A stretch of DNA of 64,000 nucleotides from an uncultured Candidatus Poseidoniales archaeon (lineage in GTDB: Archaea > Thermoplasmatota > Poseidoniia > Poseidoniales > Poseidoniaceae), in contig CAJIYT010000006.1 in assembly GCA_905181715.1 (NCBI GenBank), positions 6,315 to 70,314 of the forward strand, read 5' to 3'. Below, piece after piece: positions 56,169 to 56,951 of this stretch. Position numbers and translations under genes: made by a program. Position 1 is the first letter of the stretch. Every line of letters begins with the position of its first letter. Below the pieces are notes generated by a model. The model was not told where the DNA came from, did not search any database, and was given only the letters and a program-made list of their open reading frames with translations.

Positions 56169-56951
56169 TCAATCAAATGGGTCAAGGTGAACCAATTGTT
56201 CGATGTCGATTCTCTTGTAACCGCGCTCCTTAGCATCAGCCCCTGCTCGCTTCAGCATCCGGCGCATCCATCCGAGCATCATCAAATCCTTCATTTGCCC
56301 AATAGCGGTAATGAAAGCCGCAGGACTACTGCCCAATTGTGAGTGCTTACGAATATCCTCTTCGGTTTGATCTACTACGTCATAATACAGCAATAGCAAT
56401 TCTTCAACAGCAGCATCGGTGACCGGCATTCCACCAAACATCCTCGCCATCCTCCTTAGTGAGACCGGAGTTAGTGCATTGCCCTCTATCTGCCCCTCTA
56501 AGATGTCCTCTTCACTAGGCTGGTGAACGCTCTCCTCAGAACCGGTAGATTCTTCCTCAGTTGTAGAGGATGGTAAATGACGAGGTTTAATCGTATTAAC
56601 TCGATCTTTTTCAGCAGCCTTTTCAGCATTTTTAATCAATCTAGAGAGATTATCTTCGAGATGGGCTACCATCGCCTGAACCGCTTCTGAACCCACACTA
56701 TCGACCTTGCTTACTCTCTCTAGCATTAATTCACGAGTTCGACTATAGTTGAGGCGAGTACGCTGGGCATCGTCAAGAGTCTTTTTCTCGGGGTTTGCCT
56801 CAAGGGTAGCATCCTCCATTTCTGGAACTTTTTTATCGAGTTCAGCGATCAATAAGCCGACCAGTGTGTCCTTTACTGCACCAGACATTCTCATCTCGGT
56901 AAAAGTTGAAGCAACTGCACCTATATGGCCGCTGGAATATGGTTTTGCCAC
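56169..56951 (-). CDS. Multi-histone-fold protein (three apparent folds)
   Basis: Segments at aa ~4-60, ~66-126 and ~159-255 align with HMf-type folds (IG..........RMS.....TL...L; V.SEA......LE......A...A.....TIK; L....LRRMAR..G...VTDAA....G.KRID). Confidence 0.75.
   Translation of the reverse strand: MAKPYSSGHIGAVASTFTEMRMSGAVKDTLVGLLIAELDKKVPEMEDATLEANPEKKTLDDAQRTRLNYSRTRELMLERVSKVDSVGSEAVQAMVAHLEDNLSRLIKNAEKAAEKDRVNTIKPRHLPSSTTEEESTGSEESVHQPSEEDILEGQIEGNALTPVSLRRMARMFGGMPVTDAAVEELLLLYYDVVDQTEEDIRKHSQLGSSPAAFITAIGQMKDLMMLGWMRRMLKRAGADAKERGYKRIDIEQLVHLDPFD

Follow-up and report, generated by a model that had tools for sequence, protein, structure and literature searches.

Through the analysis of a 64,000-nucleotide window (the whole stretch of archaeal DNA considered here), the gene at positions 56169-56951 has been identified as a member of a multi-histone-fold family of the Poseidoniales that is already published, and is not a new one. 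The explanation that best fits the observations overall, and which is held here with good confidence, unites this family identity with a two-module anatomy of the protein and the mechanism of an accessory DNA-binder. The initial annotation had described a single chain with three histone folds and left its novelty to be verified. That novelty does not hold; the family is present in two published catalogues, as a ‘double’ or a ‘quadruplet’ and not as a ‘triplet’, and the initial annotation had itself named a prior description of this kind as refuting its finding.

56169..56951, minus strand: multi-histone-fold gene, 260 aa, acidic product (pI 5.17), GTG start, uninterrupted ORF

The ORF check returned exactly the coordinates and length given in the initial annotation. 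The GTG start is regarded as sound because the 88-aa ORF upstream ends in a TGA that abuts it, an SD-like GGTGG is located 6-10 nt upstream, and the homologues begin, with MAKPYS, at the equivalent position. An oligo-T tract, TTTGTTTT, is found 3' of the stop codon. The upstream region revealed no AT-rich, TATA-like box private to this gene, and a scan for sigma-70 promoters and terminators was uninformative, the host being an archaeon. The 260-aa protein has a GRAVY of -0.47, a pI of 5.17 and a net charge of -11, of which -10 is carried by the linker; the N-domain is neutral, while fold 2 has a charge of +4 and the last unit (fold 4) of +2.

The family assignment follows from direct comparison with published sequences. 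BLASTP gave full-length identities of 57% (E 9e-105) and 37% (E 7e-50) to two sequences of the ‘Single 5’ source data, the first being a MGIIa-L1 member and the second a Thalassarchaeaceae member. Laursen and Luger (Nat Commun 2026, PMC13260811; bioRxiv 2025) describe ‘cluster 5, acidic quadruplets’ as 130 sequences exclusive to the Poseidoniales, with a median length of 262 aa and a median pI of 5.2; they are always the only histone gene of the genome and possess ‘Four predicted histone fold motifs’. The protein analysed here agrees with the clustering criteria (260 aa compared to 262, pI 5.17 compared to 5.2, GRAVY negative in both) and shares family, taxon and sole-histone status with cluster 5, with no difference in membership. 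Supplementary Table 4 of the same survey sets cluster 5 equal to the ‘Poseidoniia double’ of Schwab et al. (Nat Commun 2024, PMC11390915), a label that appears about 100 times in the supplementary files of the latter work (pLDDT ~78-81, ipTM ~0.55-0.61), the main text being without any mention of the class. The published fold counts are in conflict: ‘double’ in 2024 (PMC11390915), ‘quadruplet’ in the main text of 2026, and ‘five histone fold domains’ in the legend of Supplementary Figure 7 (PMC13260811). The present analysis adds to these surveys an explicit fold parse, the co-occurrence with MC1, the losses in Thalassarchaeaceae, a conserved operon, and relatives outside the order.

The Marine Group II archaea, which are uncultured, rank among the most abundant archaea of the plankton; their phylum is mostly devoid of histones, and the present protein is the only one with histone folds that they carry. 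The homologue search yielded 360 full-length homologues, and those with a name belong to Candidatus Poseidoniaceae. When 1.84 billion representatives were searched exhaustively, 79 clusters were recovered; their full-length members reached down to 23% identity, and canonical histones of 70 aa were not among them. Within the Poseidoniales the protein is present in 48 of 81 genomes and absent from 33: it was found in 39 of 40 Poseidoniaceae (the family of the source genome), in both genomes of a second family (2/2), and in 7 of 39 from the sister family Thalassarchaeaceae. Some of the genomes lacking it are nearly complete assemblies of 1.3-1.6 Mb, and the protein is lost from most Thalassarchaeaceae. 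The family is restricted to the Poseidoniales, except that among 301 genomes sampled from the phylum, five (3-4.4 Mb) of other classes carry divergent full-length relatives with 21-31% identity (loci L022, L023 and L026-L028; genomes G146, G083, G166 = GCA_028279585.1, G174 and G077) and lack the methyltransferase-M24 synteny described below.

With regard to other chromatin proteins, a PF00808 scan of the source assembly (1.76 Mb, 85.5% complete) detected no other histone besides one 12-bit fragment containing a stop, and neither Alba nor HU was found there. The same genome encodes the nucleoid protein MC1, which was identified in all 81 genomes of the Poseidoniales, in agreement with Hocher et al. 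2022.

107975-108229 of contig C4 (locus L014), minus strand: MC1 nucleoid protein gene (PF05854, E 4e-26)

The anatomy of the protein has been derived from sequence profiles and from an AF2 model. A first run with 29 close homologues reached a pLDDT of 63.5 and was superseded by a second with 36 more diverse sequences, down to 20% identity, which reached 77.2 overall and 85-94 in the C-domain. The following elements have been distinguished:

56772..56942, minus strand: fold 1, aa 4-60, with alpha1 (7-14), L1 (R21-M-S), alpha2 (24-52), L2 (K56-K57-T58-L59) and no helix 3 (AF2 model, profile, hhalign)
56724..56795, minus strand: best-conserved stretch of the family, aa 53-76 (PEKKTLDD..RTRLNY.RTRELM; invariant alignment columns)
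56571..56762, minus strand: fold 2, aa 64-127, with alpha1 (69-77), L1 (S85-V86), alpha2 (88-115), L2 (N119-T-I-K122), a very short alpha3 (123-125) and an H2A-like TIKPRHL (Pfam PF00125, profiles, AF2)
56475..56570, minus strand: acidic disordered linker, aa 128-159, ~32 aa, net charge -10 (charge count, pLDDT <50)
56334..56474, minus strand: C-domain unit 1, aa 160-206, with alpha1 (162-173), L1 (V177) and a long helix 179-206; homologue of fold 1 (hhalign, model pLDDT 85-91)
56184..56324, minus strand: C-domain unit 2, aa 210-256, with a long kinked helix 210-243, L2 (G244-Y-K-R-I248) and a short alpha3 (250-252); matches alpha2C-L2-alpha3 of archaeal histones (HMfB 26-62 by hhalign, HmvA 40-63, AF2)

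The AF2 model shows the N-domain (aa 4-127) as a complete double histone fold, in which folds 1 and 2 are paired within the chain. Fold 1 consists of H7-14, E21-22, H24-52 and E58-59, followed by coil, and fold 2 of H69-77, E85-86, H88-115, E120-121 and H123-125. Both L1-L2 bridges are present, between 21-22 and 120-121 and between 58-59 and 85-86. The topology characteristic of histones (helix-loop-long helix-loop-helix, antiparallel pairing and L1-L2 bridges) was found in the prediction and by Foldseek, and aa 4-127 constitute in both an intramolecular pseudodimer of two folds in one chain. Foldseek returned single-chain histone pairs exclusively; the best was the M. kandleri doublet 1F1E (target-normalised TM 0.61, rmsd 3.4 A, 138 columns), followed by H2A-H2B fusions, Melbournevirus doublets and the SOS histone domain. 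The pseudodimer postulated in the initial annotation, with a first fold in HMfB register lacking helix 3, a second histone fold, and an acidic linker of ~30 aa behind it, is in this way corroborated.

At the sequence level the units differ in how readily they are detected. Single-sequence searches of Pfam, NCBIfam and the PDB detect fold 2 only. No segment other than its aa 68-126 passes a curated histone threshold (26.5 bits with PF00125, for which the cut-off is 26.4; E 8e-6), with PF00808 and the NCBIfam archaea_histone model remaining below their own cut-offs in the same type of search. Folds 1, 3 and 4 taken alone reach no curated histone threshold in Pfam or NCBIfam; they require profiles, and their matches are still weak. 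Among PDB sequences the matches are weak as well and consist of H2B-H2A fusions, spanning the Arg-rich alphaN/alpha1 region of H2A to ‘...I-x-PRHL’. The full-length family profile matches the archaeal histone HmvA (8BDK) with E 2.4e-8 together with dozens of H2A chains, via fold 2, and NC2-alpha also appears among its matches. For fold 1, the profile match to HmvA (E 0.0067) shows the expected register, and hhalign places it in histone register with HMfB over 58 columns; the sequence evidence for this fold is weak and points to the right register. The HMfB sequence served as a yardstick, against which folds 1, 2 and the last unit (alpha2-L2-alpha3) are in register, the third unit being tied to the histone fold through fold 1 only. 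The best-conserved stretch, aa 53-76, runs from L2 of fold 1 through a junction rich in Arg into the first part of alpha1 of fold 2, and in an alignment with H2A.Z it corresponds to the H2A alphaN/alpha1 region. The junction itself (aa 60-68) is coil with low AF2 confidence.

The linker is disordered in the model (aa 130-158 with pLDDT <50). Its length among the relatives ranges from ~5-10 to 43 aa and it is acidic in every case; the shortest, of ~5-10 acidic aa, belongs to the 235-aa relative from outside the order (G083).

The C-terminal module is the part of the chain on which the fold count depends. In the AF2 model it is composed of H162-173, E177, H179-206, H210-224, a kink, H227-243, E248 and H250-252, that is, two full-length antiparallel helices (179-206 and 210-243) joined by a three-residue loop, with single bridge residues 177 and 248. 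Helix alpha3 is missing in folds 1 and 3 and has three residues in folds 2 and 4. Residues 177 and 248 probably pair with each other as one in-chain L1-L2 bridge, as read from the DSSP string and not from coordinates. Within one histone fold such a pairing is impossible, as alpha2 separates L1 from L2, one at each of its ends. If 177 and 248 do pair, the C-module appears to be a histone dimer minus one alpha3 and one alpha1, with a single L1-L2 site left. A self-closed C-domain and a domain-swapped dimer are indistinguishable in a monomer model.

Internal homology bears on the same question. When segments of the 42-sequence alignment were compared by hhalign, fold 1 (aa 4-66) matched the first C-unit (aa 157-209) with a probability of 93% (E 2.6e-7), and a colinear alignment of the N-half with the C-half extended over 99 columns (86.5% probability, E 4.6e-6); the match of fold 2 to the last unit was weak (17%). 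Given this colinear homology between the two modules, the most likely origin of the protein is a doublet that was duplicated and whose second copy was then shortened.

The initial annotation had read the C-terminal part as a third fold with ~35 extra residues in helix 2. According to this explanation, the ~35-aa helical insertion interrupts alpha2 of one fold that pairs between chains, folds 1 and 2 pair in cis, and a dimeric or hexamer-like DNA-bridging particle results. At the sequence level the insertion stands: the C-terminal profile matches HmvA (E 0.0011) in two pieces separated by ~38 positions, profile positions 8-42 corresponding to HmvA 2-36 (alpha1-L1-alpha2N) and 81-104 to HmvA 40-63 (alpha2C-L2-alpha3), and TAF12 and CENP-X, likewise single folds, align in two pieces too. 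Pairing between chains is consistent with the published statement that the C-termini of cluster 5 are able to form histone-fold dimers via interchain contacts (PMC13260811), and with the multimer models of Schwab et al. (ipTM ~0.55-0.61; PMC11390915). However, the monomer model, with a pLDDT of 85-94 in this region, presents two full-length antiparallel helices with L1/L2 bridge residues, the colinearity of the two halves favours a shortened doublet over an insertion, and the literature predicts neither a tetramer nor a hexamer (PMC13260811). Three folds with interchain pairing are therefore a defensible parse but an unlikely one. The profile speaks for one split fold and the model, like the internal homology, for two truncated units; four fold-derived units in two modules probably fit the data better, the two parses being not far apart. 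The two-module parse also reconciles the conflicting published fold counts.

Among the other known histone systems, the HMk doublet of Methanopyrus kandleri (1F1E) and the haloarchaeal ‘Halo double’ likewise have two folds in one chain, paired intramolecularly. In contrast to these, fold 1 here has no alpha3, fold 2 has a stub of it, and an acidic linker and a truncated second histone-fold module are added; the identity to 1F1E is 16%, with no sequence similarity detectable beyond the fold level. Fold 2 aligns with eukaryotic H2A (with H2B) and with the H2A-like NC2-alpha from the Arg-rich alphaN/alpha1 region to ‘I-x-P-R-H-L’ at the L2-alpha3 transition. Unlike H2A, the protein has no docking domain and no tails, and the E-values are modest (1e-5 to 1e-3); the likeness may be convergent, and no membership of H2A is claimed. 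The doublets and multiplets of giant viruses (Marseilleviridae, Medusavirus) also carry several folds in one chain and are the top matches in the viral structure library, but they keep complete folds and build true nucleosome-like particles, and the likeness is structural only (E ~1e-3, 10-16% identity). Nucleosomal histones of the HMfB type possess a full alpha3 and a four-helix-bundle tetramer surface, whereas in the AF2 model of the present protein alpha3 is absent or a stub.

The genes upstream of the histone-like gene form a co-directional run with it (56169-59455, minus strand), in the order methyltransferase, M24 peptidase, usually ORF88, and histone-like gene, the latter always last, in both families of the order:

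58502..59455, minus strand: N4/N6 DNA methyltransferase (PF01555, Pfam), first gene of the run
57211..58476, minus strand: M24 metallopeptidase (Creatinase_N + Peptidase_M24; PF00557, E 8e-25)
56952..57218, minus strand: ORF88, a small Cys/His (CxxC...HxCxH) protein of 88 aa, its stop abutting the start of the histone gene

The genes of this operon overlap or abut in the window, the start of ORF88 overlapping the M24 gene by 8 nt, and the unit is translationally coupled. Throughout the order the M24 peptidase is the conserved upstream neighbour of the histone-like gene, always immediately preceding it apart from ORF88, which usually lies between them. ORF88 has no Pfam family; it is kept at 66-72% identity beside the histone-like gene in most Poseidoniaceae loci and was not detected in the loci of the sister family that were examined. 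The possibility that the M24 protein is a degenerate, Spt16-N-like histone binder was considered and dropped: the metal-ligand motifs GYVVDATR, GHSIGL, IEP and IED are kept, as judged by eye, alongside the PF00557 match, and the protein is probably an ordinary enzyme. Beyond the run lie genes for PGK and an amidohydrolase. Directly downstream of the histone-like gene, at 53451-56126, a KatG catalase-peroxidase (plus strand) and an AhpC/TSA peroxiredoxin (minus strand) are encoded. The pair recurs in some related genomes only (both genes at L025, KatG alone at L030), and a functional link to the histone-like gene was rejected for that reason; it looks like an inserted, variable oxidative-stress pair. 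For the peroxiredoxin ORF the listed start is a TTG at 56126, but an ATG 15 nt downstream (56111-56126), with GGTGG ahead of it, is the likelier one.

The conserved operon bears on whether the histone folds bind DNA at all. They could have been co-opted as a protein scaffold apart from DNA, as in TAFs, NC2 and CENP-type pairs, for example as a partner of the methyltransferase, the M24 peptidase or the Zn-protein. Such a role would agree with the order-wide conservation of an operon with three non-chromatin genes, the acidity of the whole protein, NC2-alpha among the profile matches, the dispensability of the gene in most Thalassarchaeaceae, and the suggestion of the 2026 survey that cluster 5 serves a role unrelated to genome compaction (PMC13260811). 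Against it, the relatives outside the order keep the DNA-contact motifs without the operon, the acidity is limited to the disordered linker, and the best-conserved residues are the canonical DNA contacts of histones (Arg of L1, Lys-Thr of L2, Arg of alpha1). A scaffold is the main rival to the mechanism preferred here, though an unlikely one.

The residues concerned are R21, K57, T58, R71, T120, K122, R124 and R166, each kept in 37-42 of 42 sequences, and position 246, which is Lys or Arg in 37 of 42. Since these Arg, Lys and Thr positions of L1 and L2 are near-invariant and the acidity does not extend beyond the disordered linker, it can be argued that the folded heads still contact DNA. The mechanism preferred here, tentatively and at a little below an even chance, is that of an accessory nucleoid protein whose two tethered histone-fold heads bend or bridge DNA and do not wrap it. 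Up to three L1-L2 sites would touch the DNA through the canonical positions. Because the alpha3/alpha2 four-helix-bundle surfaces are absent, the DNA would be bent or bridged by the two heads instead of being wrapped, and at the basic ridges the DNA may face competition from the acidic linker. The acidic pI of the whole protein and the sub-threshold scores of folds 1, 3 and 4 speak against the overall explanation. Furthermore, the published AF3 and MD work on cluster 5 found no four-helix-bundle tetramers and no predicted DNA wrapping, and its authors suggest that there is possibly no DNA binding (PMC13260811).

A bulk chromatin protein wrapping DNA in a nucleosome- or hypernucleosome-like manner, as HMfB does, would be in line with the complete histone pseudodimer of the N-domain and with the position of the gene as the only histone-fold gene of the genome. 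This explanation is nevertheless very improbable: folds 1 and 3 without alpha3, and folds 2 and 4 with a stub, offer no four-helix-bundle surface, no tetramer or wrapped model is published (PMC13260811), MC1 is universal while 33 of 81 genomes lack the histone-like gene, and the gene is the last of a polycistronic unit. The ubiquity of MC1, the frequent gene loss, the position at the end of the operon and the missing alpha3 surfaces together argue that the protein is not a bulk wrapping chromatin protein; the universality of MC1 beside so frequent a loss of the histone-like protein argues for an accessory role.

Taking the preferred accessory role further, the four-gene unit, which begins with an orphan methyltransferase, could act as one module. 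The protein would be a two-headed DNA bridger whose C-terminal half-dimer opens or swaps with a second molecule and whose linker gates DNA binding, and the unit may couple the DNA methylation state to local nucleoid structure under MC1-organised chromatin; this extension is speculative and rather improbable. The remaining value of the finding is in the questions of structure and function and not in discovery. The behaviour of a truncated histone-fold chain bears on the diversification of the fold, on the evolution of doublets and multiplets, and on the parallels with giant viruses and eukaryotic H2A.
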